This document shows, piece after piece, positions 5,353-23,294 of a DNA stretch of 64,000 nucleotides. The DNA is from a virus. Under the pieces are notes generated by a model. It had not been told where the DNA came from. It worked only from the letters and a program-made list of their open reading frames with translations, and made no database searches. Made by a program: the position numbers and the translations under genes. Location of the stretch: the IMG/VR virus record IMGVR_UViG_3300022902_000007; one strand, given 5' to 3'. Positions within the stretch are counted from its first letter, which is position 1. Each line of letters begins with the position of its first letter.

Positions 5353-5355
5353 TGT

Positions 5356-5868: not shown

Positions 5869-6207
5869 TTACTCTGGGGTGAGTCGATAGCGATAGCCAT
5901 TGATTTCGAGGATTTGTCCCTTGAGAGGATGGGTTTGGAGTTCTGGGACGGATTGGGTACGACGCTTGTGCTCTGCTTCGGTGAGGAGTTCATCGTTGAG
6001 GAAATAGTACTTTGTACCATCGGAATCAATGACAGCAGGGCCATCTGTGTGGTGGAACTTACCGTTTTGGTACCAAGCTTGGTAGCCATCGGAATTGGTG
6101 ACTGCAGGTCCATCTACCCTGTGCAATTGTCCATTCTCGTAGTGCCTAACTGTCCCATACTCATCCGTAACAATCTTCGTAGTCATGACTTTCTCCTTGT
6201 ATGTCAC
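5869..6207 (-). CDS. HRxDGPA repeat protein, 2 repeats (true start probably MTTKIV near 6186)
   Basis: HRVDGPA and HHTDGPA units; AAGGAG upstream of the internal ATG. Confidence 0.85.
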   Translation of the reverse strand: MTYKEKVMTTKIVTDEYGTVRHYENGQLHRVDGPAVTNSDGYQAWYQNGKFHHTDGPAVIDSDGTKYYFLNDELLTEAEHKRRTQSVPELQTHPLKGQILEINGYRYRLTPE

Positions 6208-6410
6208 TTTGTAGGCCAGCTTTCGCTGGCCTTATGCAGCCTCTGTGGCTATTTCTGATTGTCTTTGCTTATCTTTCCATATGGGAGAAAAGCTTGGGGT
6301 TTTGCTTGTTGAGGGTGACTTATTGCTTGAAATCTTTTATATTGTTTGCCATAATGAGGAATATATACTCTCCCCATGGAGACTCGTGTTAATCTCAGAA
6401 TGAGGCAAAT

Positions 6411-6614
6411 ATGGCAAAGAACTCCAGAGGCCGGCCCTCCAAGATACTGTTTACTATCCGATTCCAGGATGTCTCTGATTATCTCAATGTTCCTGTAAGG
6501 ACTCTCTATCGGATGAAGGAAAGAGGACATCTCTCTGTAGAGGGGAGCCTTGAAGAGTTCTTGGATTGTCTGTTGAGGCTACGCTTTGAAAAGAAGCTGA
6601 AGGAGCTATTGTGA
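6411..6614 (+). CDS. small helix-turn-helix DNA-binding protein (excisionase/MerR-like)
   Basis: FQDVSDYLNVPVRTLYRMKERG HTH pattern; GAGG upstream of ATG. Confidence 0.7.
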   Translation: MAKNSRGRPSKILFTIRFQDVSDYLNVPVRTLYRMKERGHLSVEGSLEEFLDCLLRLRFEKKLKELL

Positions 6615-6652
6615 AGGGGCTCATAGAGTGAATTGTTGTGGAAGAAGTTTGT

Positions 6653-6829
6653 TTATTCGCCGCGAACTTCCAACACTGCGTACACGCTCAAACAGATGAT
6701 GAACACTACTGCATGATTGACTACACACAGTCTGAATTCTGGTGTAACAGTGTAGAGGATGGTGCTTACCATTGTTGACCATCCTGAATATGTCATCAGG
6801 ATCAGCATTGCGTTCTTGAATTCTTCCAT
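6653..6829 (-). CDS. small membrane protein (58 aa, not in ORF track)
   Basis: Manual translation MEEFKNAMLILM...VLEVRGE; GGAG upstream. Confidence 0.55.
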   Translation of the reverse strand: MEEFKNAMLILMTYSGWSTMVSTILYTVTPEFRLCVVNHAVVFIICLSVYAVLEVRGE

Positions 6830-6975
6830 TGTTTCTCCAGTATTCTTTAAGCGGCGGGCCCTTGAAAGCCCGCCTACTTATTGCTTGGGATGGTCATTCC
6901 TTCTTTTTCCCGAACGATAGAAACTACCATATCGGCCAAAAAGACTCAAATGCCATAGCGGTGGACACTTGTGAT

Positions 6976-7215
6976 TCACTCTTCGAGCTGTTCACACTTC
7001 TCTTCCAGGTCGGAAGGATAGATGTGCTCCAAGTAGGCTCCTGCAAAGAGGCTTGGACCACCAATGCAGATCCAGCAGATGAGGAAAAGGAAGAAATAGT
7101 CACCAGTGCCGTATTTCGAGTTGTTGTTGTCCCAGACATTCTTCATAAAGGCTTTGAAGGCCATGAAGAACAATGCGATGATTGCGAGAAGACCGAGGAT
7201 TTCGAGTGGGTTCAT
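6976..7215 (-). CDS. small two-TM membrane protein
   Basis: Two hydrophobic segments. Confidence 0.6.
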   Translation of the reverse strand: MNPLEILGLLAIIALFFMAFKAFMKNVWDNNNSKYGTGDYFFLFLICWICIGGPSLFAGAYLEHIYPSDLEEKCEQLEE

Positions 7216-7302
7216 TGTTTTCCCTTATAGCAGTTCATGAAGATAGCCCCACTCTTGTGGGGCATTCTCTCGGGCGCGAAACCAAACATTCTTCTTACAA
7301 GC

Positions 7303-7539
7303 CTACAAAGGCAGCTCTCTTACTTCCCTGAAGTAGACTCCATGTTGATGAAGTAGGTCTGCCAATACCATTGGATGATGTGTACCATGTCCCCAATACC
7401 TGACAGCAGACAGGTTGTCTCCGAGTGCCGTGACTGTAGGACCTTTGGTTCCAGTCATCTCTTCGAATGAAGTGAGCTTGTCAACACAGCTTTGTGCATC
7501 TTGGGGATGCACGTTTACTCTGATACGATAGCGTCTCAT
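7303..7539 (-). CDS. hypothetical protein (start moved to MRRYRI)
   Basis: ATGA overlap with the upstream gene; the longer ORF would run through a tRNA. Confidence 0.55.
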   Translation of the reverse strand: MRRYRIRVNVHPQDAQSCVDKLTSFEEMTGTKGPTVTALGDNLSAVRYWGHGTHHPMVLADLLHQHGVYFREVRELPL

Positions 7540-7733
7540 TCCTGACATGTGCAGACTCCGTCTTGGTAGGAGAGCATTTCTTGGCCGCAGGTTACACCGC
7601 AGTTCTTCAGGCTGGATGCATTGGTGGTCGTTACGATGGCAGCCAGCAGACCGAGAAGAGCAGTGAGACAGGCAAGGGTGATGATTGAGATCCCGATGTT
7701 GTCCTTGCCAATTGCGTTGATGAAGCTGGTCAT
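7536..7733 (-). CDS. small membrane-anchored Cys-containing protein
   Basis: TM helix followed by CGVTC..CTC. Confidence 0.55.
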   Translation of the reverse strand: MTSFINAIGKDNIGISIITLACLTALLGLLAAIVTTTNASSLKNCGVTCGQEMLSYQDGVCTCQE

Positions 7734-7764
7734 TTGGTTGGTTCTCTTTTGCGTTGGTTTTAGA

Positions 7765-7839
7765 TGGCAGGCCTACCTGGACTTGAACCAGGGATAAAAG
7801 TTTAGAAGACTTTTGTGATATCCGCTTCACTATAGGCCC
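7765..7839 (-). tRNA. tRNA-Arg(UCU)
   Basis: Cloverleaf: acceptor GGGCCTA/TAGGCCT, D arm GTGA/TCAC, anticodon arm AAAGT-CTTCTAA-ACTTT, T arm CCTGG-TTCAAGT-CCAGG, encoded CCA. Confidence 0.92.
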
Positions 7840-7957
7840 GAAGTCATAAGGAAGCCCCGCTTTCGCGGGGCTTATGGCCTTTTATTCCTTGTGAGGCCAG
7901 GCGGCGATGGCAAGAAAGACAATGACCAGAATCCAGAAGTCCATGAGAGCTCCTCAG

Positions 7958-8329
7958 CTACCAGGTGAAGCCTTTGACTCCATTGTCGAGCTGTACCACT
8001 CTCCACTTCTTCTTGTCAGCGTAGAGGAGGCTCTGGAGCTCTCTGAAGAACCTGTAGGCGAGCTTGTGGTGCTTGCGATACCAGATGTTCTTGAAGAGGA
8101 TGATGCTGCCTTCTGGAAGCAGGTTGAGTTGGTTGAGGAGGTCTTTTACTTGCGCGGCCCTCTTCAGTTGCTCTGCCCTGCTTTCCGCCGCCGCGACTAC
8201 GAACTCCCTCTTGCCATTGTACTGGCCCCACTGGAAGACTCGCCCCCAGAACTCCAGGGCATTGTCTTCATTGCCTCGGGAACCGGGGATGTAGACTCCT
8301 GCTGAATGGAGTCGCTGGTTGACAGACAT
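7958..8329 (-). CDS. hypothetical protein
   Basis: GAGGTGA upstream of ATG; co-oriented. Confidence 0.6.
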   Translation of the reverse strand: MSVNQRLHSAGVYIPGSRGNEDNALEFWGRVFQWGQYNGKREFVVAAAESRAEQLKRAAQVKDLLNQLNLLPEGSIILFKNIWYRKHHKLAYRFFRELQSLLYADKKKWRVVQLDNGVKGFTW

Positions 8330-8337
8330 TGCTCACC

Positions 8338-8511
8338 TCACTTGAGCCTCTTGATTTCTTCGTAGCTGATGATGGATTCTCCAGGACCGAGCTGTGCCTC
8401 GAAGACTTGGAGAGCTTCGTCGAGAGTTTCGACCTCTCCAACGATGTGATAGAGATGTCCAGGCACTATCCAGTTGCGCAGGCGGACCTTGGCGTGGATG
8501 TAGTAGGTCAT
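8338..8511 (-). CDS. hypothetical protein (start MTYYIH)
   Basis: ATGA overlap with the upstream ORF. Confidence 0.5.
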   Translation of the reverse strand: MTYYIHAKVRLRNWIVPGHLYHIVGEVETLDEALQVFEAQLGPGESIISYEEIKRLK

Positions 8512-8783
8512 GTCTCGTCCTTTTCTGCCATCAAGAGACCAATCGCGTTGTTGAGGTGGCATGGGTCCATTTGACTATGGATGTAGTAGAAGTTGTTGCG
8601 ACTGGCGACGACTTCAGAGGTTTCCGTGCAGTATTGCACGAAGTCTTTTGGAGCTCCGTAACCGAGGTCTCTGAGGCACCCGTTGACCATGAAGTGTATC
8701 ATGCGGAGTAGCATTTCATCCTCAGTGAGACGATGAAGAATGAGTCCGCCGTCCACGGAGATAGGCTCGTAGGTAGTCTTCAT
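8508..8783 (-). CDS. hypothetical protein
   Basis: ORF directly downstream of the tRNA. Confidence 0.55.
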   Translation of the reverse strand: MKTTYEPISVDGGLILHRLTEDEMLLRMIHFMVNGCLRDLGYGAPKDFVQYCTETSEVVASRNNFYYIHSQMDPCHLNNAIGLLMAEKDET

Positions 8784-8807
8784 GTGGGTCCCTGGCTTGT
8801 TGAGATG

Positions 8808-8895
8808 TGGTGAGGGCGGTAGGATTCGAACCTACGGTGGACTTTCGTCGTCAGCTTAAAAGGCTGGTCCTCTCGGCCAACTGAGGGACGCCCCA
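8808..8895 (-). tRNA. tRNA with UUU (Lys) anticodon and long variable arm
   Basis: T arm GTAGG-TTCGAAT-CCTAC, anticodon arm CAGC-CTTTTAA-GCTG, variable hairpin GAC-GAAA-GTC, acceptor GGGGCG/CGCCCT, A73-CCA. Confidence 0.85.
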
Positions 8896-8942
8896 TATTT
8901 CTTCATAATACAAGGCCCCCTGCGGGGGCCCTGCTTCAAGCT

Positions 8943-9233
8943 CTACTTGTACGTGTAGAACGCCTGGCTGGTCTCCAGGACCACCATGTTGCGGTTGATT
9001 GCTCGGCTGAGCACGTCCTGACGCTGGTCGTCCACGTTCCTTCCACCGCCCTTGACGGCAGAACCCATCTGCTTGAGGCCACAGAGCCTGATGTAGTAGT
9101 TGGCGCTGATGGGGCAGTCGCGGTTCTTGATGGCGAGCCAACCCAAGCCCCCGACCTTCTTGGTGAAGCGGGAGTCGAAGTTGGTGTTGTAGCTGGTGAT
9201 GCTGAGCACGGAAACCTCCTGTGCAGTGTTCAT
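8943..9233 (-). CDS. hypothetical protein (start MNTAQE)
   Basis: GC3-biased ORF flanked by hairpins. Confidence 0.5.
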   Translation of the reverse strand: MNTAQEVSVLSITSYNTNFDSRFTKKVGGLGWLAIKNRDCPISANYYIRLCGLKQMGSAVKGGGRNVDDQRQDVLSRAINRNMVVLETSQAFYTYK

Positions 9234-9265
9234 AAGGGAGGGCCCCTTGAAGGGGCCCCATCTGA

Positions 9266-9562
9266 CTATCTCACGTGCATTGGAGGCTCGTAGGCCCACA
9301 GAGACCTTCCAGTGTGCTCGTACCAACAGAACTCCAGGTTGCGGAGGTACTCGTCGTCATCGATATCAGCATTGATGACGCAGGCTTCTCCGGAGATGTA
9401 GGCAGCAGAGCCGTTTGGAGCCGCCGTGGAAGATGCGGAGTACCAGAACCTCGGCATGTAGTCGGCAGGACGCATACCAGAAGCGTACAACTGATAGCCA
9501 ACCATGCCAAGGCCCGTGATGAGGAAGAACACGATGAGGATGTTTTCCAGGAAGCGATTCAT
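9266..9562 (-). CDS. membrane-anchored hypothetical protein (start MNRFLE)
   Basis: GAGG upstream, N-terminal TM helix; the longer ORF crosses a terminator. Confidence 0.6.
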   Translation of the reverse strand: MNRFLENILIVFFLITGLGMVGYQLYASGMRPADYMPRFWYSASSTAAPNGSAAYISGEACVINADIDDDEYLRNLEFCWYEHTGRSLWAYEPPMHVR

Positions 9563-9590
9563 TGCAGACCTCTTGTGGAAGTGATTCATT

Positions 9591-9615
9591 GAAAAGGGAG
9601 CCCAAAAGGGCTCCC
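9591..9615 (-). terminator. intrinsic terminator
   Basis: GGGAGCCC-TTTT-GGGCTCCC followed by TTTTC on the minus strand. Confidence 0.6.
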
Positions 9616-9987
9616 TACCAGAAGCATTCTCCCTGGAATCAGGGTTACTGGCTCCTGGATTTCTCTTCAACAATGACCACAGATTGTTAGGCAGTAGAAC
9701 CCTCTTTGTGCAAGTATTCGTGATGTCATTCACGATAGCTGGTTGGGTGCAATCACGTTCCTGACTCTCAACCTATTGGTGTAGGCTTTCTCACACATTG
9801 ACCTTTGACTTGGCTGTATGAGTTGTCGTTCCAGAGCACCAACTCTGGTAATGGTCATAGAGTAGCCCGGTCTCTGACCGGGCCGCCCTTCCAAATTCTT
9901 TCTTTACTCGCCCACAAAAACAATCCCCTCAACCAATCAAACAAGAGACAGGAGGCAGTCTCTTCAGAAAGGATGAGAGGAATGAGT

Positions 9988-10230
9988 CTATGCAGGTTCT
10001 TCTGCCATCTTCTGTGCACGTTCCCATGCCATCTTGAAGGCATCGTAAGAGCCATGACTGATGACCCCGATACCCACCAAGAACAGCACTGGTACCAGAA
10101 CCATCCATGCGAAGACCTGCAGCAACTCCAGGAGTGGAGTCCACTTGAAGGTGATGAAGAGGATGGCAGCTCCGACCAGGAACTTGCCCCACCAGGGGCA
10201 CTGATTGTACAGCTCTTTGAGCTTTTTCAT
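9988..10230 (-). CDS. small membrane protein (start MKKLKE)
   Basis: AAGGAG upstream of ATG; two hydrophobic helices. Confidence 0.65.
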   Translation of the reverse strand: MKKLKELYNQCPWWGKFLVGAAILFITFKWTPLLELLQVFAWMVLVPVLFLVGIGVISHGSYDAFKMAWERAQKMAEEPA

Positions 10231-10359
10231 GGTTTCTCCTTGGAGATTGTTCATAGAGGAGGGCAGGCTCTGCCTGCCAGCAGTGGCACGGCCTTTGTTC
10301 GAGTTTCTCCGATATCGCGGAGTCATAGGTGGGGCTGTGTGTAGGGGTGTGAGCGGAGG

Positions 10360-10396
10360 CCATTAAAAAAGAAGGAGGCCCCCGAAGGGGCCTCCT
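10360..10396 (-). terminator. cUUCGg terminator-like hairpin with conserved TTCTTTTTTAATGG tail (element copy 1)
   Basis: GGAGGCCCC-TTCG-GGGGCCTCC-TTCTTTTTTAATGG. Confidence 0.8.
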
Positions 10397-10410
10397 CGCT
10401 CAGTCTCTGT

Positions 10411-13400
10411 CTACCTCGTGTGCTTGTTGATGGCAGTACACAAGCGACCGGCACCGTTCATCATTGCCTTGCTCGGCTTGGCCCGAGCACGACGCACTGC
10501 GATGGCACTCACCAGACTCTTGCAGTCCGGGCACTCCAGGAACTGGACACCAGTCTCCTCGTAGTGCTTCATGGGCTCTGGGAGGCTGACACTCGTCCCC
10601 TCGATTCTGCCATAGGGCCCGTACATCAGGCTGCTGAGCACCTCGTGGATGTCCTTGAACACAGGCTTACCGTGCTCGTCGGTCTCCTTGAGGAGCATGT
10701 CTGCCATGCTCTCGACAGCCTTGACTCGTTCAGGAGTCATGTAGTCACACCCAGCGTTGACCTGGATGATTCCCAGCTTGTCGAGGACGGGGGATCCTTC
10801 CCAGGCCACTGCTCGGAAGGCACGCTTGATGTGACGCTCGGACAGCTCCTTGTGGGAGCCATACTCACGACTCAGGCTCATCTCTGTTGACCAGATGGTC
10901 AGCAGCTCTTCCCAGGTGAGGTTCTTGAGGCAGTTCCTCAGCTCGACTCGGCAGGCCTCGATGTCACCGTTCCTCTGGTCAGGTTCGAGAGCAGAGCGCA
11001 TGATGCGTCCCACATTCTCACCATACGTCCTGAGGCCAGACTTCTCGTACAGGCCAGGCTCACCATTGACACCACGCTGGTAGGTAGACTCGGGCAGGGC
11101 CATCCTGGGCTCTTCCTTCAGGCCCGCGTACAACAGCACTTCCAGATTCACCGAGAGCTGCTCCGGCATGTTGTCCTTCTTCCAGTCCTGGAACATACCC
11201 CAAGCTTCCCAGGAGCAGTAGTGCACGAGGTTCTGGTTCTCGCCAGTGTACTCCGTACCTACCCAGCCATTGGGATTGATGCGCTTGGAGCGCTCCTGCC
11301 AGGTGTTGGTGTGCTTCCAGGACATGCCCACTGGCCTGCCCTTGTCGTCAGTACCCACGACGTAGCCCAGCTCAGCAGCGGTCCTCTTGACCCACCAGCT
11401 GAACTTGCCAGGGATGAACCCGCCATACTCATCGACATACCAGCTCTCTGGGCCCATGACCATGGAGCGCTTGGTCGAGCCATCCTCTGCAGTAGAATCG
11501 TACTTCCAGCAGCAGCAGGTCTTGCCATTACGTTCGTACTCTTCCACCACTCTCCAGTTGGCCCCGATCATTGCCTTGTCCATGTTGGTGAACAGTGGGT
11601 TGCGCTTGAGCTGATCGATGAACTCCTGGTTGAGGCACATTGCTGCCATCATTGGCATGGTCTCATCCAGAGCCAGGAACATTGCGCAGGCATTCGTCGC
11701 CATGCCCACTGGTCCCTGTCCGTCCACGGCGATCAGCTTGACTCCATCCCAGCTCTTGGTCGGGATCTTGTCCAGGTGACCGTCCGTGTTCTTCTTGGGC
11801 TCGATGAGGTACACATCTTCAGGCTTGCCCAGCAGCGGGATGCGAGACTCGTAGAACCTGATCATTTCTGGATCCCAGGAGCACGCCACTCCATCACCGT
11901 CGTCGTCACCCATGAGCAGATGCTCCATGTCCATTGGGTTCATGAAGATGGTGTTGGACGGGACGATGTAGTCGGTCCTGCCTTTGATCAGCATGTGGCT
12001 GAAGGCCTCCACGATCTCTGCTTCCATCAAGCAGGCTGGCTGCAGGCCGGGAGCACGGGTGATGGCAAGTCTGTCTCCCACCCTGTACCTCCGCTTGCCA
12101 TTGATCTTCATGGCTGCCATGACGACCTCACCGGGCTCCAGGCTGTTGTCCATCACGACCACGGGAGCCTCGCACATGATGCCTGCACCCTGCTGGATGT
12201 GGTAGAGCTGACGCCCCAGTTCATCCATCAGTTGTTCTGACACCTGAGGTACGGTCTTGGGATCGACACCCAGCTTGTCGCAGATGGCACAGACCATGCC
12301 GAGGTTCTCGTCGCGCTTCATGACGATTTCCATGAGCTCATCCATGGTGAGCTTCTCGAAAGCCTCCTCCACCCTGGTCTTGATGAACGCCTGGTTCTCC
12401 GGGGAGTTCTCAGCGAACTGCAGGGCTTGGAAGTTCAGCTTCTGCTGGCGTGGCTTGGTCCAGGTCTGCATGATGCCCAGATGCAGCTTGATATTGGCCG
12501 TGAGACCGTTGGCATGCAGCTTCTTGGCGTCAGCCTTCCTGGTTCCCTTGATCTGCAGTGGGTCGATCCAGATGGCAGGCTTTCCGCTCTTGTCGACGCA
12601 GCGCTCATCACACACCAGGATGCCCTTCACGAAGACCTCACGGCCCAGGTTGAAGGCTCGGATCTGCACGACGTTCCGCTTGTGACGCGGGATGCCCAGC
12701 GCTTCCCAGATGTCGTGTTCCGGATGGATGCAGCCACAGCCGTCACTGCCAGCAGCCTCTCCCATCCAGTTCTCACGAGTCTTGATGATGCAGTCGTAGT
12801 CATCGATGTGCACCATGGGTCCACACAAACCGCTGACGTAGGCACGGAAGTCTACGGCCACCGGGAAGATGTCGGACAGCACCCTGACGACCTCCTTCTT
12901 GATGGCCCACTTGCCCTTGACCAGGATGTAGCCAGCCTTGTGAACGGGAGACCAGAAGTCAGCCGGGATGTCAGGCTGAGAGCCATCCTCTTCCAGCGGC
13001 AGGTTGTTCTGGAACCGGATCACGGGCAGGTCGTACTTCTTGCCCCAGTAGTGGGTGATGAGACCCACGGGGCCGTTGCTCACCACGTAGCCAGCCTTGA
13101 GACGCTCGGTGTTCCCTTTGGCGGGCTTGTAGATATTCACGATCGGCATGCTCCTCCAGCCCTCTGCCTTGGCCCTGGTACGAGCCACACTCTTCAGGCT
13201 AGTGGTGAGGTCGTCGTATTCCTGCAGCTCATCCTCGGGGCTCTTCCCCAGCATCAGTTCCACGAACAGGTCAGCGTACTCACTGATCTTGGTCTCGACG
13301 GTGACGAGCTTGCTCGCCAGGTACTGGGCAGCCCAGCAGGTGGTGTTGTCCATTTGTGCCTCCTTGGCGTTGTTGGACGGGTTGTCGTTGAGGTAGCTCT

Positions 13401-13674
13401 TGATGTAGATTTCGTTAGGCCTTGGACCCAGAGGGGCCATGCCCATGACTGTCTCGAAGTCGCCATCGCCCCGCAGATGGTAGTAGTAGGACCACTCGTC
13501 ACAGGCTCGACAGTGGACATGACCATCTTCGCAAGCGGTATGCACCAGGAACCCATCTCCGTGGGTCGGGCAGTTTTCACTGTGGTCGATGTCGTTGAGT
13601 TCGCAGCACTTACAGTGGCTTCCCCCATAGGGGTTGCCCATGATGCAGGTGTTGGCAGTGTCGGTGATAGCCAT
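10411..13674 (-). CDS. single-chain two-barrel RNA polymerase, YonO/QDE-1(RdRP)-like
   Basis: Ordered motifs SDGCGCI, VVQIRA..VKGIL, AITRAPGL and MGDDDGD (DxDGD at 11893-11907), matching cellular RdRP and SPbeta YonO patterns. Confidence 0.85.
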   Translation of the reverse strand: MAITDTANTCIMGNPYGGSHCKCCELNDIDHSENCPTHGDGFLVHTACEDGHVHCRACDEWSYYYHLRGDGDFETVMGMAPLGPRPNEIYIKSYLNDNPSNNAKEAQMDNTTCWAAQYLASKLVTVETKISEYADLFVELMLGKSPEDELQEYDDLTTSLKSVARTRAKAEGWRSMPIVNIYKPAKGNTERLKAGYVVSNGPVGLITHYWGKKYDLPVIRFQNNLPLEEDGSQPDIPADFWSPVHKAGYILVKGKWAIKKEVVRVLSDIFPVAVDFRAYVSGLCGPMVHIDDYDCIIKTRENWMGEAAGSDGCGCIHPEHDIWEALGIPRHKRNVVQIRAFNLGREVFVKGILVCDERCVDKSGKPAIWIDPLQIKGTRKADAKKLHANGLTANIKLHLGIMQTWTKPRQQKLNFQALQFAENSPENQAFIKTRVEEAFEKLTMDELMEIVMKRDENLGMVCAICDKLGVDPKTVPQVSEQLMDELGRQLYHIQQGAGIMCEAPVVVMDNSLEPGEVVMAAMKINGKRRYRVGDRLAITRAPGLQPACLMEAEIVEAFSHMLIKGRTDYIVPSNTIFMNPMDMEHLLMGDDDGDGVACSWDPEMIRFYESRIPLLGKPEDVYLIEPKKNTDGHLDKIPTKSWDGVKLIAVDGQGPVGMATNACAMFLALDETMPMMAAMCLNQEFIDQLKRNPLFTNMDKAMIGANWRVVEEYERNGKTCCCWKYDSTAEDGSTKRSMVMGPESWYVDEYGGFIPGKFSWWVKRTAAELGYVVGTDDKGRPVGMSWKHTNTWQERSKRINPNGWVGTEYTGENQNLVHYCSWEAWGMFQDWKKDNMPEQLSVNLEVLLYAGLKEEPRMALPESTYQRGVNGEPGLYEKSGLRTYGENVGRIMRSALEPDQRNGDIEACRVELRNCLKNLTWEELLTIWSTEMSLSREYGSHKELSERHIKRAFRAVAWEGSPVLDKLGIIQVNAGCDYMTPERVKAVESMADMLLKETDEHGKPVFKDIHEVLSSLMYGPYGRIEGTSVSLPEPMKHYEETGVQFLECPDCKSLVSAIAVRRARAKPSKAMMNGAGRLCTAINKHTR

Positions 13675-13735
13675 GATTGCCTCCTAAGCATATGGCTTGT
13701 TGATGGTCGTCTCCATACAGAGTGTAGGGATTGGA

Positions 13736-13775
13736 CCATTAAAAAAGAAGGAGCCCGCCCCCGAAGGGGCGGGCT
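13736..13775 (-). terminator. cUUCGg hairpin element copy 2, upstream of RNAP gene
   Basis: AGCCCGCCCC-TTCG-GGGGCGGGCT-CCTTCTTTTTTAATGG. Confidence 0.8.
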
Positions 13776-13789
13776 ATCATGAACACGAG

Positions 13790-15109
13790 CTACTCAGGCA
13801 GCATGTTCACCAGCAGTGCAGCCAGTTGACGCATCTCTGCTGACACGGCCTTGTTGCAGGGTCCTTGGAGTTGATGGATCTTGCCTCTCGTGGCATGGAG
13901 GCTCGCCTTCTCACCATCTGCTCTCCTCAGATGCCAGAGGGTCTCCATCCTCCCATCGTACATGAGATTGTTGATGCAGTTGTTCCAGTAGCCACCGATG
14001 CAATGATGCATCTCTTGGCCTTCCTCCCAGCTCCGAAGTTCTGAGCCGATGAGCTCACATCCTTCAGGCCACTGCATCTGCTTCATGGCTTCGATCTTGG
14101 CTTCATACTTGGTCCGAGCTTCTGCCAGTTTCTTGTTTCTGTTGTCTGCGATCTCTTTGTACCGCTGTTGTCGGATCTCTACGACTCTGTTGTTCTCTTC
14201 AACCAGTCTGTCATGGATTGCCATGAGCTGAGTCCTGGTGAGTCGTTGCTGTGTCCACTCTGGCCTCTCACAGAGGCCCCGCCTGCGATGCATCCGGACA
14301 GTGTCTCTGTACTCCTGCAGCAGCCCCTTCCGCCCATAGTACTGGAGATGGGGGTGGCTCCCGACCAAGGCTGGATCACGCGAGACCATCTGGATATAGA
14401 GAGTCAGGCTGTCTTGACTCATGGGCTCTCTGACCCGAAGGCCAATCGCAGCATTCCTTCCATGTGCGCTCATCTTCAACAAGTTGTTCCTGATCTGGGC
14501 AGGAGTGCCAGGCTTGAGGCGGCGAAGGATGGCCTTGTCCTTCAGCCCCTTCACCATCAGCTTGGCGCAATGCTTGCGGCTCCTCCATCCGCTATTCAAG
14601 ACGAGTCTGAGGGTATTGCCAGTGTTTGTAATCCACTGATATGCTGGGTGCCTACCGTTGGCCAGCAGCCAGTCGAGTCCAGCCCGACCCTGGAAGTTGA
14701 GAACGACAATCGCAGACTTGGAGATAATTGTGAACCCTTTCTCCTTCAGCTCCTCCAGGAGCTTCTTGGTCTTGCTGTTCTCCAACGCCTGCTGGTAGAG
14801 CCAGGCGTAGTGCCTGTAGAGGGCTGCGTTGGGGTCTCGCATCACGGCGCCCCAGGACTTGAACCCGAGGGTCTTGGTGACGATATGGATGGGGTTCGTG
14901 ACCTCAGACTCGTCTTGGCGCAGTTCCTGTGCACCGAGGTAGTCGAACATGTCCAAAGGATTCCAGTGCATCTTGTTCTGCATGAAGTGCCAGCGTCCCT
15001 GGTAGTCTCCGTCGAAGATGATCCAGGTCTTCCTGGTCTTGCAGTTGCTGTGGAAGCAGAAGCCTCCACCGTTGGTGCAGATGTCAGAGAGGGTGCGAGT
15101 GAATGACAT
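13790..15109 (-). CDS. PcfJ-like domain protein (start MSFTRT)
   Basis: C-terminal EEGQEMHHCIGGY...QLQGPCNK motif; AGGAGG upstream of 15109. Confidence 0.75.
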   Translation of the reverse strand: MSFTRTLSDICTNGGGFCFHSNCKTRKTWIIFDGDYQGRWHFMQNKMHWNPLDMFDYLGAQELRQDESEVTNPIHIVTKTLGFKSWGAVMRDPNAALYRHYAWLYQQALENSKTKKLLEELKEKGFTIISKSAIVVLNFQGRAGLDWLLANGRHPAYQWITNTGNTLRLVLNSGWRSRKHCAKLMVKGLKDKAILRRLKPGTPAQIRNNLLKMSAHGRNAAIGLRVREPMSQDSLTLYIQMVSRDPALVGSHPHLQYYGRKGLLQEYRDTVRMHRRRGLCERPEWTQQRLTRTQLMAIHDRLVEENNRVVEIRQQRYKEIADNRNKKLAEARTKYEAKIEAMKQMQWPEGCELIGSELRSWEEGQEMHHCIGGYWNNCINNLMYDGRMETLWHLRRADGEKASLHATRGKIHQLQGPCNKAVSAEMRQLAALLVNMLPE

Positions 15110-15147
15110 GATAGTACCTCCTACATGTCTTGTGTATGGCAGTATTG

Positions 15148-15184
15148 CCACTAAAAAAGAAGGCGGGGCCCCGAAGGGCCCCTC
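15148..15184 (-). terminator. cUUCGg hairpin element copy 3
   Basis: GGGGCCC-TTCG-GGGCCCC-GCCTTCTTTTTTAGTGG. Confidence 0.8.
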
Positions 15185-15188
15185 AGTC

Positions 15189-15365
15189 TCAGTCGCTTCT
15201 CTTGGCATGGTATGTCTCATGCCTTCTCATGTCTGTCAGGTATGGCTTCAGCAGTGCCTTCATGGAGCGCTGCTTCCACCTTGTCCCACAGACTTCACAC
15301 TCGTAGTACAGCCACTTCCTGCCAGTCTTCACCAGCTTGAAGTGACCACTACACCCGCAGGTCAT
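15189..15365 (-). CDS. small zinc-ribbon protein (58 aa, not in ORF track)
   Basis: Manual translation MTCGCSGHFK...YECEVCGTRW...; ATGA overlap with the upstream gene. Confidence 0.6.
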   Translation of the reverse strand: MTCGCSGHFKLVKTGRKWLYYECEVCGTRWKQRSMKALLKPYLTDMRRHETYHAKRSD

Positions 15366-15706
15366 GACTGCCAGACTTCTAGGATCTCATCGATCTCTTC
15401 CTGACTGAGGCCTTGCTCTTCGCAGTAGATCTGAACCAAATCGGTAGCCAGTCTGAAGTCGAGGAAGAAGTAGTCATCTGACATGTGCGCATATTGCTCA
15501 ACCTCGTAGGTTTCGCAATAGGTTCCGTCAGGCCACACGAACAGTCCGTCGTTTGTAGGCTCCGGCGTGTAGGCTTCTTTGACGAAGATCTCCTTGGCCC
15601 TCTCGTACCACTTGTGACACAGGTGACTGAACCACGTGCCGAGGCTGACACCGAGGAGGGCACCGAAGATGCCGAGGATGATCGCGATGATGATGGGAAG
15701 GTCCAT
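15362..15706 (-). CDS. membrane-anchored hypothetical protein
   Basis: AAGGAG upstream; N-terminal TM helix. Confidence 0.7.
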   Translation of the reverse strand: MDLPIIIAIILGIFGALLGVSLGTWFSHLCHKWYERAKEIFVKEAYTPEPTNDGLFVWPDGTYCETYEVEQYAHMSDDYFFLDFRLATDLVQIYCEEQGLSQEEIDEILEVWQS

Positions 15707-15735
15707 CTTGTTTCTCCTTGTATGGACGGAAGTGT

Positions 15736-15773
15736 CCGCTAAAAAAGAAGAAGCGGGCCCCGAAGGGCCCGCT
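15736..15773 (-). terminator. cUUCGg hairpin element copy 4
   Basis: AGCGGGCCC-TTCG-GGGCCCGCT-TCTTCTTTTTTAGCGG. Confidence 0.8.
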
Positions 15774-15788
15774 CAACTCTCTGTCGCT

Positions 15789-16445
15789 CTACGCAGCCAG
15801 ACGTGCCTTCCGCCTGATCTGGACCACGGTCTTACCATGATGCCAGTTGTCGCTGCCGAAGATCGAGGCCCTCAGTCCGAAGTCCTCCACCATCTGCATC
15901 ACGACTTGCTTGTCACTCTGCTGCAGGAGCTGGCTGACGAAGCACCTGACAGGATCTGCCTTGATCTGGTTCTTCAGAGTCCGGGCGAGATCCATGGCCT
16001 TCTCGTACTTGCCATACTTGTCCTGCTGCGCAGCACAGTTGACGTTCTCATCCAGCTCGTGGTGCTGGCCAGTGAACAGGACGGACTTCTTGACCCAGTT
16101 GCCAGTTCCCATGGCCTGGTCGAGTTCTTCCTGACTGACGTTGTCGTACCAGAAGCTGTCATCCATGGCGTGGTCTGGAACTTCTTCCATGCTGTACACG
16201 TACAGTGGCTGGTCGTAGTCTTCCATGCCCTCCAGGTCCATGTCCATAACGAGGCCCAGCATGTCTTCCGAGATGCTCTCACTCGTGGTGCTGACGTTGG
16301 GCTCGAAGTGGAAGCGTACTTGCCGTGGCTGGACGCAGTTGGTGAGGAAGCCCACCAGGAAGGGCATGCTGATCATGCTGATGATGGCGAAGTAGATGGC
16401 GAAGACGCCACCGTTGAAGGTATTGGCGAGGGTGATGTAGTCCAT
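15789..16445 (-). CDS. membrane-anchored acidic hypothetical protein
   Basis: AGGAGG upstream; N-terminal TM helix. Confidence 0.7.
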   Translation of the reverse strand: MDYITLANTFNGGVFAIYFAIISMISMPFLVGFLTNCVQPRQVRFHFEPNVSTTSESISEDMLGLVMDMDLEGMEDYDQPLYVYSMEEVPDHAMDDSFWYDNVSQEELDQAMGTGNWVKKSVLFTGQHHELDENVNCAAQQDKYGKYEKAMDLARTLKNQIKADPVRCFVSQLLQQSDKQVVMQMVEDFGLRASIFGSDNWHHGKTVVQIRRKARLAA

Positions 16446-16479
16446 GATTCCTCCTGTGGATTTGGACTGTTGGTGTCGT

Positions 16480-17168
16480 AGCTGTCTCTCTGCTGTGGGT
16501 GCTGCACCTATCCCAGCTTGGTCTCTCCTGCGGTTTGATCCACTGGATAACCGGGTGCTTCTGTAGTATGAAAGAGCGGTATGTTTAGGCTCGTCCTCAC
16601 GAGTGCTCTATATAGCCGCTATGCCATAGAGCCGAACGCTCCCCATGGAGCAACCCTTCGATTCCGGGCCAGAACCCTGGTAGCCCCAGGTGGCAGCTCC
16701 TGTCCTGTGGAGCCAAGGTCTAAGTGTTGGTTACTACCCGTTCACACACGGGGTCACATGGAGTGATGGTGTCTACTGTTCTCCTACTCGCTCTCACTCA
16801 GAGCCAGCCTGTATTGCTACTCTTGGACACAGACGTCCTCACTTGGGTCTTGCCAAGACAACGTACCTACTACACGGCCCTTTTCTGATAGCAAGCCATC
16901 AGGCCCTTACTGCAGGCGGGCCTACAGACCATGGTTGGGTACAGCACTACCTCTCTACCTATCCCTGGTAGACTCAGGGGATAGAGTGTATTGGCCTTAC
17001 CATCAGCCAATACATGGGGGTTGGACCCACGATAGTCCCTGCACATACGAGTATATGCAGAGGTATGCTCACCACTATGGGCTTGCATACGCATACAGGT
17101 CAGTTTCGTGTCATGACCAGGACTGCGAGGGCTTTCGCTGTGTCATACCATGTGGTATGTGTTGCCAC
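16480..17168 (-). ncRNA. candidate large structured non-coding RNA (~700 nt)
   Basis: No credible ORF; many stem-loops; GNRA loops (GAAA, GCAA) read on the minus strand; boundaries approximate. Confidence 0.55.
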
Positions 17169-17205
17169 TAAATAAAAAGGAGAACCCCTCCGAAGAGGGG
17201 TTCTC
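17165..17205 (-). terminator. cUUCGg hairpin element copy 5
   Basis: GAGAACCCCTC-TTCG-GAGGGGTTCTC-CTTTTTATTTAGTGG. Confidence 0.8.
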
Positions 17206-17212
17206 GGTAGTC

Positions 17213-17335
17213 TCAATGACTGTGATTGATGTGGACAGAGGAATGAGGCTTGGCAACCTTCTTGCCACTACGCTTGGCCTTCTTGCGAAGACGCTTGGCG
17301 ATGGTCCACTGTCTGGTCTTCTGCTTGCGCTTCAT
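17213..17335 (-). CDS. 40-aa highly basic peptide, first gene of the left arm (not in ORF track)
   Basis: AAAGGAG upstream; MKRKQKTRQWTIAKRLRKKAKRSGKKVAKPHSSVHINHSH. Confidence 0.65.
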   Translation of the reverse strand: MKRKQKTRQWTIAKRLRKKAKRSGKKVAKPHSSVHINHSH

Positions 17336-17550
17336 GACTTCTCCTTTTGTGGGGGTGGGCACCGAACGGCAGGGTATCCACCATTTCTACCCAATCAATA
17401 CCAGGTCTACATCCTCTATTTTTCATTCTCGTCCAGTCTTCTCTTCCTTGTTTTCCATATACATATATACCTTTTCCATCTCCTCTCTCTTTTCTATCTT
17501 GTTTCTCTCCCCAAAAATATATTTTTCCTAAATCCGTCCCTATATGGGTT

Positions 17551-17564
17551 TTTTGCTATAATAC
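17551..17564 (+). promoter_or_regulatory. extended -10 type promoter (TGnTATAAT) heading the morphogenesis arm
   Basis: TTTTGCTATAATAC; near-copy TTTTGCTACAATAC at 43172-43185. Confidence 0.55.
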
Positions 17565-17582
17565 CCTTGCCCTTTTCCAAAA

Positions 17583-17864
17583 ATGTTTTTGCAATGGAGT
17601 TTTCTCTTGAATTCGGAAGAACTTTACTCGTTTTCTCTTGATTTCAACGAATTTGTAAAATCTTCTAGACAATTGGACGCATTCCATTGGTATAGATACA
17701 AATATTTCGTTGACAACTCGAACTTTGACGACCCAAAGAAAGAATGTAGATACGTCATCAAGACGAAGCAACTCGGTGAAGATCAGAAGTCGCAGTTGAA
17801 GCAAGAGTTGAAAACATGCAAGGATCTACTGGAATCACTGTTGGAGAGGATAGAAGATGAGTAG
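17583..17864 (+). CDS. hypothetical protein
   Basis: ORF overlapping the next start; start codon uncertain. Confidence 0.5.
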   Translation: MFLQWSFLLNSEELYSFSLDFNEFVKSSRQLDAFHWYRYKYFVDNSNFDDPKKECRYVIKTKQLGEDQKSQLKQELKTCKDLLESLLERIEDE

Positions 17865-18651
17865 TCGAGAGATGATCCAGCGCGAGAAACTACAAACCCT
17901 CCAGAAGATGGAGAGCCAAGAAGAAGCAATCCAAGAGATTACCAAACTGGAGCCTGAGTATCAGGGCTACCTGGATAGACTGAGTTCGAAACAGCGCCGG
18001 CGAGCACAGTCTTCCATCACTGCCATGCGTACCGGCCTACACTCCATTGCACCCTTGGTATGTGGTGGACCTGGAAGGTGCTTGTTCTTTGACAGATGCC
18101 CGATCCCAGAGGTAGATCCCATCACTGGTGAAGTAGACAACGGTCCTATTGAACACTATCCCATTCATCGCGGCTGCATCATGGAAAAGATGTACATGTC
18201 ACAGAAGGTGGTTGAATATGTTCAACACTTGGACGTGAACCCAAACAACCCCATCGAGATGGCTATTGCAAATGACCTGGCCATCATTGACCTGTATAAG
18301 TACAGGGCTGTAGCCATCCTCTCTTCTGGAGACAAGGACGGACATGGTCAGGACTTCATGCGAATGGACATAGTCGGATTCAACGAAGAGACTGGTGATG
18401 CGGCCTACACCACGAACACCCATCCAGCTCTGGAAGTAATAGAGCAGCTGGAGAAGAGGAGAGAACGCTTGATTGACAAGCTGATGGAGACTAGAAAGGC
18501 CAAGACGGATCTGGCGATAAAACTGGGACAGGGTACGGAGAGCAACGTCCTGTTGGAAGAGATCAAGAAGTTGAGGGATGCGATCGAGGGCGGCGCGAAC
18601 GTAGTGGATGCAGAATACGAGGACATCGAACTATTGGATGGAGCTATCTAA
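17857..18651 (+). CDS. probable terminase small subunit
   Basis: Helical, Cys cluster, HPALEVIEQLEK segment; position at the start of the packaging/head arm (inference). Confidence 0.5.
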   Translation: MSSREMIQREKLQTLQKMESQEEAIQEITKLEPEYQGYLDRLSSKQRRRAQSSITAMRTGLHSIAPLVCGGPGRCLFFDRCPIPEVDPITGEVDNGPIEHYPIHRGCIMEKMYMSQKVVEYVQHLDVNPNNPIEMAIANDLAIIDLYKYRAVAILSSGDKDGHGQDFMRMDIVGFNEETGDAAYTTNTHPALEVIEQLEKRRERLIDKLMETRKAKTDLAIKLGQGTESNVLLEEIKKLRDAIEGGANVVDAEYEDIELLDGAI

Positions 18652-19082
18652 TGATCACGCCTGAAGAAGTATATGAGTTGATGGGATATGAAGACCCTGA
18701 TGCATGGATATACAAGAAGGTCGAAGAAAACTGGGAAGAGATGAAGAAGACATATGTCGATGATGGTAGGGAATATCTGTCCTGTCTTTCGGCCAGGTGC
18801 CTTCTCGAAGAGCTCGCGAGTGGCAGCGGTAGAACCACCCAGATGATAGTGCATGGGCTGTGCGAGGCCTTCAAGGAAGAATACGTCGTAATCATTGGAG
18901 ACCCAGATCATGTCCATCATATCCAGAGCCGAGTCAGAAAGATTGCTTGGAAGATAGCCGAATCCACGGGTCGTTATCTTTTCGTCTGTGTTGCTTCTGA
19001 TGAATCCAGCCTTCCAGGGACGCCCAGCCTTCTTCTCAAAGACCACGCGCTGGAATACCAGGAGCTGTACGGTACAGAATAG
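18651..19082 (+). CDS. hypothetical protein with degenerate P-loop-like SGSGRTT
   Basis: TAATG coupling to the upstream gene. Confidence 0.5.
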   Translation: MITPEEVYELMGYEDPDAWIYKKVEENWEEMKKTYVDDGREYLSCLSARCLLEELASGSGRTTQMIVHGLCEAFKEEYVVIIGDPDHVHHIQSRVRKIAWKIAESTGRYLFVCVASDESSLPGTPSLLLKDHALEYQELYGTE

Positions 19083-19106
19083 ACCAGTCTTCCCTCCCGG
19101 TGAATC

Positions 19107-22100
19107 TTGGACCCAATCAAACATCTTCGTTCCGTAACGGCCCCTCTTCAGGGAGGGATCCTGGACATAGAGACTCTTTCTCTCGAAAGAGCTTCCCCTG
19201 TTCACGAAGTGGCTTATGCCATCCCCTCCAGAGGGAAGGCCTATCAATGGCTGATGGATCCCACTTATGCTGCGGTGACTCCAGCGAAGGCACAGGACGT
19301 ACTACAGCTGGCGGTCTCGAATCGGGACGCGCTCTCCAGACTTCCTCTAAAAGAGGCGCTGGGCAGAGAGGTTTTCTGGACGGATGTCATTCGTGTACAC
19401 GCCCTCATGCGTTCAGGCTCTCTCAGGGGGCCTCAGACGGCTCAGGATCTATCCAAGGCCTTGGGCAAGGGGTCTTACTCCACAATTCAGCAAGCGCTCT
19501 CCTCGTCGCTTCCAGGAGGCTCCACGGTAAGAGGAGTATTAGGAGGGTCTGACAAGTGGTTGCTCAGACAGCTGGAGGCTGGGACTTATCCATGGCTGGG
19601 TGGAGGCAAGGCTGAAACCCAGAGGATCCCGGGGTATCATTCTGTCAGTAGTCAGAGAAGCTCCATGGAGAAACTCTTTGGTCCGGGGTCTCCCCTCTTG
19701 AGAGAGATGAAGCAGAGAGTGACATGGATTCAGAATACGCCGTTCGAGTCCAGCAGAATTGGGGCCTGGCTCAGGATAGCCGAGGGAGAAGGAAAGCAGA
19801 CTGCTCTGAAAGACACGGTGAGATGGAGGACCACTGCAGGACTGGAGGACTTGTACGTAACTGGGCCGGAGGTAAACAGGGCGAGGGCATTGGCTCAGCT
19901 TACTGGAGACTGGTCTGGAGTATGGAAAGCCTATGCAAAGCACTCTGGGCCTGGTGATGTCAGAGACATCATGGACGTCATGAAGGCGAACCAGAGTTAC
20001 GCAAGGCAGTTGGGATTGCTGAAGACTCGGAACAATCAATACTTTGGCTTGAGTGTGGACTTCGCTACCAGGATCTTCAAGCTGACTGAAAGAGGAGCAA
20101 ACCTGAAAGGAGCACTGGCTCACAAAGAGGCTCACGTAGCCTTGCTGGATGCTGCCAGGGATGAAGGGTACTTGGTTCAGAGGGCCACCACCATGGCTGC
20201 TACCATGAACGAGGTTGCGAAGGGGACCGAAGAGGGTAAAGCCCTGATGAACATGGCTCGACAGAAGCGTGGTCCCATGTTCCAGGCAGTGAAGTTCTTC
20301 AGTGCGATGGAGTACTTCCAGAAAGACTTGCAAGAAGCCAACTTGGTCCAGAGGTTAGGTAGGGCGTTTGAGGATTTTGCAACTCAAGGCGTGTCAATGC
20401 AGCACGCAGGACACAAGTTGGTTCGGTCTGAGATGGTTTCCAACACTGGACAGAGAACTATAGGACATCTGGGTGTGCCAGGAAAGAGAGAGGCAATATT
20501 CGAGGTTGGAGAGCTGCTACAGTTCCTCAAGGGAACTGGACAATACGAAGGTCTGGACATTGATCGTGTGTCTGGCAAGATGATAGAGCAGATGGTGAAC
20601 AAAGGAGGGCTAAGTTATCAGGATGGGATAGGGAAGGTAATAAATGAAAATTTGTTGAGAGGAGCGGCCAGAGATTATACAGACCAGATCGTAGACAGGA
20701 AGATGAGTTTCGCGATCAACAGGATCGCCAATGCTCCTGGAGGAGTGACCGGCTGGTTCGAGAGTCTGGGAGAGGAAGTACCACTTGCAGCGAGGAGGTC
20801 GGCTGTCGGGAAGCTTTTCGAGAATGCTTCTTTGAAAAGGGCTGGATGGATGGCGGCTGGGGTCGCTGCAAGCATGGTAGCCGTCGGAACCATGGCGAAG
20901 GGATTCAGGGGGCCGCAAAAGTCTACTCCGAGTCTCAGGACCATGGACTACGAGAGCTGGTTGGCATACCAGAGAGAGTTCTCTGGTCAGGAAGACTTCA
21001 CAGCTCCAGGTAAGGGTAAGGCAGAGGGCGGGATAGCGGCTTCTCTAAGAAGGGCGTTCACTGACTTTGGATCCCCTTACAGGGGGCCATGGAGCTCTCA
21101 GAGAGTGCTTGTCGAGCAGGAGTTGTTGAGAGAGAGGGAGAGATACAGGAGGGAGGCGTTCGGAGTGATTCATCATCATCCGGATGTAGGCTTGTTTTCC
21201 AGGATCAAGACATTAATGCCTTCCAAGAGAGTCTCTTCTCTGATTACGTCAGGGATAGAGAGAGCTGATCTGAACAAGTACTCTGGAATAAAAGGTGATG
21301 GCCTGTTCGAAGTCAATCTCAAGGACGGTGGATGGAAGCTGACTGTAGACGATGCTGACACGATCACGATCCAAAGAGGCAAGCTGTTCGGGGACAGATA
21401 CTCCTTTAGACTCTCTGGTATAGACGCGCCGGAGACGCGACACGGGAAGCAGGCAGGACAGCCATATTCCCAGGAGGCTACAGAGAAGCTCAAAGCGTTA
21501 CTTCGAGAGAGAGAGAGCCTGAAGCTGGTCTTCGACCCTCAGAACGTAACGTATGGACGTGCTGTCGGTGTGTTGGTAGCTGATGGACAGAACATCAACA
21601 TGGAGCTGGTGAGAAGAGGCAAGGTCGCTGCCCTGGCTTACGGCCCAGCTTCTGAACGCATGTTGGATGCAGGGCCCATGGCTTCCTTGGAGAAGAGGGC
21701 CAGAGAGGCTGATGCCGGTATGTGGAACGAGCCATTCTGGCAGGCTTACGAGGACACACTGAGAGGGCAGAGACTGACCTTCAACCAGATCGCCTCCATG
21801 AGCAGAGTGGCCAAGAGTTCGACAATGACGTCAGCAGTGAGTCTGATGAAGCAGGCCCAGGCTCAGGGGTTCTACTCGAACTATCAGATGACTGCAGCTT
21901 CAGAGATAAGTGAGAGAATCAAGACAGCAGGGATAGAGGATGACTACAGATTTCCTCTGCAGCATTCTTCCAGGAATGCGCCCCACAACAACTACATGTT
22001 GGAGATGCAGAGTGATCTTGGAAGCTGGATCAAGACCAAAGGCGGGAAGGCTCAGAACAAGTTTTCCCACAAGCAGGGGATAGATAGACTGAACAAGCAT

Positions 22101-23224: not shown

Positions 23225-23294
23225 GAGAAGAGATGATCAAGAATGATACAGAATTCATTTATGCACTGATAGAACTCCAGACCTACTTTTTTCA

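Follow-up and report, generated by a model that had tools for sequence, protein, structure and literature searches.

The virion RNA polymerase of phage N4 is a T7-like enzyme whose promoters have a DNA hairpin of 5-7 bp with a 3-nt loop upstream of +1, and the PeSL repeats of T4-type phages carry a host sigma-70 early promoter. In Thermus phage P23-45, chromatin immunoprecipitation sequencing (ChIP-seq) shows that the tape-measure-fused virion polymerase (gp96) occupies a 9-kb pre-early block, genes 59-77, which includes the gene for the non-virion polymerase (Chaban et al. 2024, PMC10770324). Fourteen starts mapped in this phage by cappable-seq (ONT-cappable-seq) have an upstream sequence ending in ...TTATTCCTTT-A(+1), and these T-rich A(+1)TGG sites are those of the virion enzyme, whereas the non-virion enzyme has a different, GC-rich motif (PMC10770324). 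Seven P23-45 terminators share a conserved 26-nt motif that has been attributed to an unusual termination mechanism, and three mapped terminators lie 6-13 nt ahead of a mapped start (PMC10770324). The present analysis concerns five elements, E1-E5, on the minus strand of 64,000 nt (the window) of IMGVR_UViG_3300022902_000007, an uncultured phage described as marine. Each consists of a GC hairpin, a T tract and the sequence A(A/G)(T/C)GG (ARYGG), and they punctuate a gene block that includes a 1087-amino-acid (aa) RNA polymerase; a 1729-aa protein of the tail module is a candidate virion polymerase.

The reading favoured here, held with moderate confidence, is that the elements are fused terminator and promoter signals of a pre-early gene class and are read by a phage polymerase, most likely the injected one. 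A stop-restart function of the elements is in itself likely.

The elements and their counterparts in related phages

The stems of E1-E5 have 7-11 pairs and differ in sequence while the cTTCGg loop is invariant, and each is followed on its 3' side by a pyrimidine/T tract of 7-12 nt and then by ARYGG (Table 1). Predicted RNA folding energies of the hairpins range from -17.6 to -24.2 kcal/mol. The first-pass annotation had described these five elements from the sequence of the window, and all of them are present in the sequence and in a hairpin listing of both strands, where they are the sole TTCG-loop hairpins with a stem of at least 7 pairs in the 64 kb. The expected number of chance matches to the composite pattern in the window is zero. 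The 15-mer CTTCTTTTTTARYGG is present without change in four of the five elements. A stop codon precedes each of the five by 6-14 nt, and the next start codon led by a Shine-Dalgarno site follows after 34-135 nt for four elements and after about 725 nt for E1. The GC-rich stem-loop, the U-rich tract directly after it and the stop codon upstream are those of an intrinsic terminator. No Rfam family was found for the elements.

Relatives of the 1087-aa polymerase are numerous and distant. HMMER gave 131 of them below 1e-10, the best with 38% identity; no close relative was found, and the nearest one with a locus is 37% identical. The cultured-phage collection held no DNA or protein match to the region or to either polymerase, single-protein scans of viral and metagenome contigs gave nothing, and word-indexed protein searches returned the window's own proteins only. 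An exact-pattern scan of viral contigs rendered 20 scattered single matches and no relative. Related loci were collected through the polymerase alignment, which resulted in 13 viral and 27 metagenome loci with a polymerase identity of 23-37%; the contigs of the three nearest polymerase relatives (P0002-P0004) lie outside this set.

The arrangement of hairpin, T tract, A(R)YGG and a second hairpin was found in 12 of the 13 viral contigs and in metagenome contigs encoding the 1087-aa homologue. It is always on the strand of the polymerase gene and occurs in nearly all loci with enough upstream sequence, the start variants being A(A/G)(T/C)GG or ATGG/ACGG. Over all loci there are 165 distinct matches on the polymerase-gene strand versus 49 on the other strand, and a perfect GC hairpin at most 22 nt upstream is present in 98 versus 6 cases. 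The loop is TTCG in 39 of the 98 cases with a perfect stem. G001 (161 kb) and G002 (183 kb), two genomes that are complete and have terminal repeats, contain the elements in a single cluster of 4-6 kb and nowhere else; the end of the cluster lies shortly behind the polymerase gene in G001 and shortly ahead of it in G002. The phages that share the motif have G+C contents of 37-50%.

A comparison of the motif across relatives, which the first-pass annotation had named as one way to check its claim, is clearly positive. A weight matrix derived from 49 elements of the relatives alone, with nothing from the window, was scored over both strands of the window (128 kb). It ranks E5, E4, E1, E3 and E2 as matches 1-5 (24.4-16.4 bits), the next-best match scores 15.2 bits, and in shuffled sequences the maximum averaged 13.3 and never exceeded 17.1. 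That sixth-best match, at 275-322 on the plus strand, consists of a GC hairpin and, behind it, a long T/C tract that has TTTTTTGG at its end.

Conservation extends beyond what termination needs, as had been claimed, in that ARYGG and a covarying hairpin behind it are common to phages with unrelated stems. The first-pass annotation had also seen a CC(C/A)TACA box a short distance downstream. The strings stand where it placed them but do not form a conserved promoter box: CCMTACA is not enriched in the window (12 found, 10.6 expected), although four of the 12 copies sit 11-18 nt past an ARYGG, and at E1-E3 the box is the 3' arm of a second small hairpin. The 5' arm of this hairpin is the YGG of ARYGG, the 3' arm is a downstream CCR, and an A/C-rich leader follows; in the relatives the box is kept solely as the (N')CCR 3' arm with the A/C-rich leader. 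The mean folding energy of positions +1 to +36 is -9.1 kcal/mol for 54 elements versus -4.6 kcal/mol for 54 chance matches to the motif elsewhere, and pairing begins by +4 in 45 of these 54 elements. In 48 of 77 elements the base that follows GG can pair with the one preceding the first CCR downstream, and this covariation spans C-G, T-A, A-T and G-C classes (chi-square p about 1e-7). Because YGG pairs in the single-stranded product, the transcript must begin at or before YGG.

The two halves of the element also occur separately. A T tract with ARYGG and the second hairpin, lacking the upstream hairpin, heads the cluster in three relatives (G001 160313, L023 4957 and L032 4916), and one further hairpin-less copy lies inside a cluster (L024 4464). 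The G001 cluster is closed by a hairpin and T tract without ARYGG (5213). Terminator and restart thus appear to be distinct functions that are usually fused.

Two terminator stems in the closest relative (L062 145 and 565; polymerase 37% identical) read GGGGCCCttcgGGGCCCCGCC and are identical to the E3 stem (window 15165-15182). This identity suggests exchange, or strong convergence, of the elements themselves.

Table 1. Positions of the elements, predicted stem-loops, genes and other features in the window. Bit scores are those of the weight matrix from relatives; energies of E1-E5 refer to the element hairpin, and those of the sequences downstream to positions +1 to +36.
Feature	Position	Strand	Details
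E1	17165-17205	-	11-bp stem 17205-17180, cTTCGg, tract CTTTTTATTT, AGTGG 17169-17165; -21.8 kcal/mol; 19.6 bits
E2	15736-15774	-	10-bp stem 15774-15751, cTTCGg, tract CTTCTTTTTT, AGCGG 15740-15736; -22.1 kcal/mol; 16.4 bits
E3	15148-15182	-	7-bp stem 15182-15165, cTTCGg, tract GCCTTCTTTTTT, AGTGG 15152-15148; -17.6 kcal/mol; 19.2 bits
E4	13736-13775	-	10-bp stem 13775-13752, cTTCGg, tract CCTTCTTTTTT, AATGG 13740-13736; -24.1 kcal/mol; 23.6 bits
E5	10360-10397	-	11-bp stem 10397-10372, cTTCGg, tract CTTTTTT, AATGG 10364-10360; -24.2 kcal/mol; 24.4 bits, top match of the window
Predicted 5' stem-loop after E1	17148-17168	-	GTGG, 9 nt, CCAC; includes the weak box ACATACCA; -8.0 kcal/mol
Predicted 5' stem-loop after E2	15718-15739	-	(C)GGAC, 6 nt, GTCC, then ATACAA; the box noted earlier as CCATACAA; -6.3 kcal/mol; A-T covariation class
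Predicted 5' stem-loop after E3	15132-15151	-	GTGGC, 6 nt, GCCAT, then ACAC; the box noted earlier as CCATACAC; -7.7 kcal/mol; C-G covariation class
CCCTACAC after E4	13722-13729	-	No pairing with ATGG; predicted partner is a downstream TGTATGG; different fold, -10.4 kcal/mol
CCCTACAC after E5	10339-10346	-	No convincing hairpin; -1.1 kcal/mol
Head motif GTTCGGTGCCCACC	17354-17367	-	Arm start, downstream of the AT-rich divergent region; nearly invariant in L021, L025, L030/L033, L032 and L085
40-aa highly basic peptide	17213-17335	-	First gene of the arm, followed by E1
Unit after E1	15789-17164	-	Non-coding leader of about 720 nt (17164-16446) and 218-aa gene (16445-15789); protein without homologue in relatives
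Two small cargo genes between E2 and E3	15189-15706	-	114 aa and 58 aa; no family, no homologue in relatives
PcfJ-like cargo gene between E3 and E4	13790-15109	-	PF14284, E 2.6e-7; no homologue in related loci
1087-aa RdRP/YonO-like two-barrel RNA polymerase	10411-13674	-	PF05183, E 5.4e-12; DDDGD loop; last large gene of the block
Second-family elements	10249-10278, 9853-9884, 9584-9616, 9228-9259, 8901-8934, 7842-7873, 7233-7263	-	Hairpin and (T/C/A)ATGA(A/C)
1729-aa tail-module protein, candidate virion RNA polymerase	50357-55546	+	Homologues in all six sufficiently long related genomes; invariant DxDxD loop

Proposed function and the reading polymerase

From this anatomy we infer the following sequence of events. 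The GC stem with its UUCG tetraloop and U tract would end the upstream transcript as an intrinsic terminator, and the T/C tract would double as the upstream half of a promoter. The predicted start is the A of A(A/G)(T/C)GG, give or take 1 nt (17169, 15740, 15152, 13740 and 10364), which would place release and re-initiation within about 10 nt of one another. The new RNA would open with YGG, and after E1-E3 this would pair with the downstream CCR into a 5'-terminal stem-loop that is probably protective; behind it would come the A/C-rich leader with a Shine-Dalgarno site, and then the gene. The five elements would in this way split the block from 17.3 to 10.3 kb into separate pre-early units with fast-changing cargo, in which the gene of the 1087-aa non-virion polymerase would be the fixed member of the class.

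The first-pass annotation had suggested dual terminator/promoter sites for the virion RNA polymerase. The dual function fits all the comparative evidence, that is, the conservation together with polymerase genes, the strand, the cluster, the separable halves and the core in common with P23-45, while the assignment to the 1729-aa protein is made by analogy. We give this protein a somewhat better than even chance of being the reader of the elements, for two reasons: no 1087-aa enzyme can be present until its gene, which lies behind E4, has been transcribed, and the signal agrees in its core with the mapped virion-polymerase promoters of P23-45 and not the GC-rich motif of its non-virion enzyme.

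These two points also stand against the best of the alternatives, according to which the elements serve the 1087-aa enzyme, or both enzymes, with a first round of transcription from the arm head that is then amplified from the internal sites. The 1087-aa enzyme served to find all the related loci and the motif is present in each of those that extend far enough upstream, a second family of sites, which shares the A-T-G-purine core, begins directly after E5 and indicates that related specificities may exist, and a phage genome, G010, has three similar elements ahead of a large open reading frame (ORF) with a GDNDGD loop. All of this would agree with a role for the 1087-aa enzyme, and yet a polymerase whose gene follows E4 cannot supply the first enzyme; we consider the alternative unlikely.

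Several results weigh against the favoured reading. Homologues of both polymerases occur in every sufficiently complete relative, and the motif co-occurs equally with both, so that the comparative data are silent on which of them reads the elements. The 1729-aa protein has no match in PDB or Pfam, and hhalign comparisons of its family with the N-terminus of gp96 and with the 1087-aa family gave no similarity. An AlphaFold model of residues 1000-1729 from a 4-sequence alignment is too poor to use (mean predicted local distance difference test score, pLDDT, 47.6). A matrix from 16 P23-45 sites reaches at best 13 bits in the window, below the mean maximum of 14.4 in shuffles, and E1-E5 are not among its top matches; in G001 and G002 the same matrix gave a mixed result in which elements were not cleanly separated. 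E4 and E5 have no convincing YGG/CCR hairpin when positions +1 to +36 are folded, and the 40-aa gene, which is the first unit of the arm, has no promoter copy that the matrix from relatives recognises.

Further searches with the two proteins can be added here. Pfam gave nothing for four homologues of the 1729-aa protein, profile searches of both polymerase alignments against PDB gave no match, and the ESM Atlas returned sub-threshold leads only, to tail tape-measure families. The loop of the 1729-aa family reads GDFDGD in two relatives. At the presumed catalytic loop (residues 1299-1303) the sequence is DHDAD in the window and DFDGD, DFDGD and DMDGD in three aligned homologues, and in this comparison of four sequences the glycine of the universal DxDGD is replaced in the window phage only.

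G010 is a complete phage genome of 161.8 kb with 37% G+C, and its three elements of hairpin, T tract and TTTA(A/G)TGG are found at 19594, 21335 and 22022. They lead into a 2175-aa ORF (L096 12974-19501, minus strand) that has helix-hairpin-helix motifs besides the GDNDGD loop; it could be a giant polymerase, highly divergent, with the same role in this genome. G010 was considered as a control with a virion-type protein and no 1087-aa enzyme, and it is not a clean one since these elements precede the GDNDGD ORF.

According to another alternative the elements are terminators and nothing else. ARYGG and its hairpin would then be an unusual termination signal or a mark of shared ancestry, and the arm would be a single operon read through from one upstream promoter. 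The 26-nt motif shared by seven P23-45 terminators, for which an unusual termination mechanism was proposed, is a precedent for this, and the unit after E5 has a leader of 135 nt with another hairpin. We nevertheless find it quite unlikely, given that copies lacking the terminator head the clusters of relatives and terminators lacking ARYGG close them, that the covarying hairpin comes after the release point, in sequence for which a terminator has no use, and that the same core is a mapped start site in P23-45.

A role mainly as recombination modules, similar to PeSLs, with repeats that let cassettes of small genes be exchanged, had been offered as a second possibility in the first-pass annotation. 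The part of it that holds is the turnover of cargo: the five cargo proteins are without homologues, unlike the polymerase, the 80-aa membrane protein and the product of the flanking 264-aa gene, which are conserved. The cassettes have identical 15-mers on their flanks, and the E3 stem recurs in a phage with a polymerase just 37% identical. The elements have no sigma-70 early promoter, however, and their strict strand and position relative to genes, with both hairpins selected for pairing, point to a role in transcription or RNA, of which the turnover of cargo may be a by-product. Recombination as the main function is therefore improbable.

Promoters for the host RNA polymerase, possibly with a phage factor, after ordinary terminators are hardly credible, because although TTTAAT in TTTTAATGG fits a -10 hexamer at 5 of 6 positions, the A at -11 is missing, the variants TTTTATGG, TTTAGTGG and TTTTACGG fit worse, there is no -35, sigma-70-like sites are fewer than expected by chance, and the motif is kept over phages of differing G+C that share phage polymerases and not a host. 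The scan for sigma-70-like sites covered positions 5000-24000, where 5 were found and 11 were expected from shuffles; none of them serves the genes of the arm and none lies at an element, which agrees with the earlier remark that no -35/-10 is visible.

Within the favoured stop-restart reading, termination and re-initiation might even be mechanically coupled, with polymerases delivered by the virion releasing the RNA at the U tract and restarting about 10 nt further on while staying on the DNA. This version would involve few polymerases, possibly held at the tail or entry site, and we regard it as doubtful. If it were true, a chain of stops and restarts would make discrete hairpin-capped messages and at the same time go on drawing the end of the genome into the cell until the second enzyme becomes available, and the short distance between stem and +1 (7-12 nt, in about 40 phages) would be its footprint.

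The gene block around the elements

The punctuated block is on the minus strand, and the opposite, plus-strand arm begins at 17857. Between them, at about 17400-17860, is an AT-rich divergent region, at which the minus-strand arm begins. From there the order is the 40-aa peptide, E1, the leader of about 720 nt with the 218-aa gene, E2, the 114-aa and 58-aa genes, E3, the PcfJ-like gene, E4, the 1087-aa polymerase, E5 and an 80-aa membrane protein, E4 and E5 being directly upstream and directly downstream of the polymerase gene. On the plus strand the divergent region is followed by a conserved 264-aa gene, a nuclease-domain protein, the large terminase (TerL, 23295-25568) and virion genes.

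None of the five proteins encoded from the arm head to E4 has a homologue in the approximately 40 related loci, in contrast to the 264-aa gene, the polymerase and the 80-aa membrane protein. The comparison of cassette content across relatives, which had been put forward together with the recombination proposal, thus separates a variable cargo from conserved flanking genes, and it fits a rapid turnover of cargo between fixed punctuation marks. The best-conserved neighbour of the block is the 264-aa protein (17857-18651, plus strand). It belongs to no known family, diverges from the arm and is found in the same position in at least 17 related loci with 37-52% identity.

The sequence between E1 and the 218-aa gene (16446-17164, minus strand) has no credible ORF and is either a long leader or a non-coding RNA. 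Rfam gave no family for it, permissive thresholds included.

The arm starts with a head motif of 14 nt, GTTCGG(A/T)GCC(C/T)ACC, that is kept among phages with polymerases less than 30% identical. Copies are found in the relatives (L021 1945, L025 5088, L030/L033 4754, L032 4873 and L085 about 1320), where they lie just upstream of the first T-tract/ATGG site. No consensus RNA structure was found for the motif. The sequence GGAGCCCACCG within the P23-45 terminator TTS11 may be a coincidental likeness.

The second family of elements starts right after E5. In its members the loop of the GC hairpin varies, a long U tract is lacking, and 2-6 nt separate the hairpin from (T/C/A)ATGA(A/C). They account for 7 of 46 hairpins on the minus strand versus 1 of 55 on the plus strand, and two copies directly precede tRNA-Lys (8895-8808) and tRNA-Arg (7839-7765). 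The family was not found as a class in the relatives. Possibly it is a weaker form of the start signal seen at E1-E5, or else the class of sites that the second polymerase uses. The ATGs at 10253, 9858, 9590 and 9235 (minus strand) are in frame with the following gene with no stop between, and the copy at 7238 is out of frame. In three of these cases (10253, 9590 and 9235) the following gene has a Shine-Dalgarno-led start of its own, while the ATG at 9858 opens a 42-aa ORF. Since the ATGs are in frame with genes, leaderless translation as in P23-45 is conceivable for this family.

Comparison with described systems

The first half of each element resembles canonical Rho-independent terminators with a UUCG tetraloop in its GC stem of 7-11 pairs, the extra-stable cUUCGg and the 3' U tract. 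It differs from them in that conserved sequence, ARYGG and the covarying hairpin, runs past the U tract. The PeSL repeats are similar in being short repeated modules that flank small, poorly conserved early genes, and dissimilar in their host sigma-70 promoter, which the elements lack. The proposed system has in common with N4 an injected polymerase, early genes and a hairpin beside the start site. Unlike in N4, the loops have 4 nt, the covarying hairpin is downstream of the predicted start and the relatives have hairpin-less copies. A hairpin promoter of the N4 type was rejected on account of these loops, the hairpin-less copies at the head of clusters in relatives and polymerases that are not T7-like by Pfam.

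P23-45 offers the most extensive comparison. Its genome has 17 start sites of the mapped type on the pre-early strand, 10 of which continue with TGG, and both there and in the window a pyrimidine/T tract abuts A(+1) and is followed by TGG (RYGG in the window); the likeness is limited to this core. The terminators of P23-45 are GC hairpins with T runs, and in both phages they have conserved features. Like the window, P23-45 has a block of 7-9 kb with small genes that includes the gene of the non-virion polymerase and diverges from the terminase and structural arm, and the signals are confined to one such block in G001 and G002 as well, with a like layout. P23-45 has two two-barrel phage polymerases, and the window is likened to it in this respect with the 1729-aa protein as a candidate only. 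At the protein level no similarity to gp96 was detected, and the similarity of P23-45 gp64 to the 1087-aa enzyme is marginal (E 0.021) and located around the catalytic loop.

There are also clear differences. The upstream half of the P23-45 motif, TTATTCC, is absent at the elements of the window. Fusion of terminator and start is the rule in the window, whereas most P23-45 pairs are 25-35 nt apart, and the window has UUCG loops where P23-45 has stems with a GCTAGC-type motif. The messages of P23-45 are leaderless and the ATG is the start codon, whereas the ATGG/GTGG of the window is predicted to open a 5' stem-loop ahead of a leader with a Shine-Dalgarno site. Leaderless translation from the ATGG/GTGG of E1-E5 was considered and rejected because of a mismatch with the reading frames of the genes: at E4 and E5 the frame is wrong, and E2 offers no start codon.

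If the favoured reading is correct, the pre-early strategy with two polymerases would extend beyond one group of Thermus siphoviruses and take in a wide range of uncultured phages, marine and freshwater, with genomes of 130-190 kb, in which the punctuation signal persists although the polymerases have diverged to 23-37% identity. The reading gives exact predictions in the form of five start sites and five release sites. The compact consensus (GC hairpin, T tract, A(R)YGG, 5' hairpin) might be used to find pre-early gene sets, and with them candidate host-takeover genes, in metagenomic phages, and it also supplies templates for in vitro study of single-chain polymerases. In comparison with P23-45 the window is a further example of the known two-polymerase pre-early strategy and introduces no new principle.

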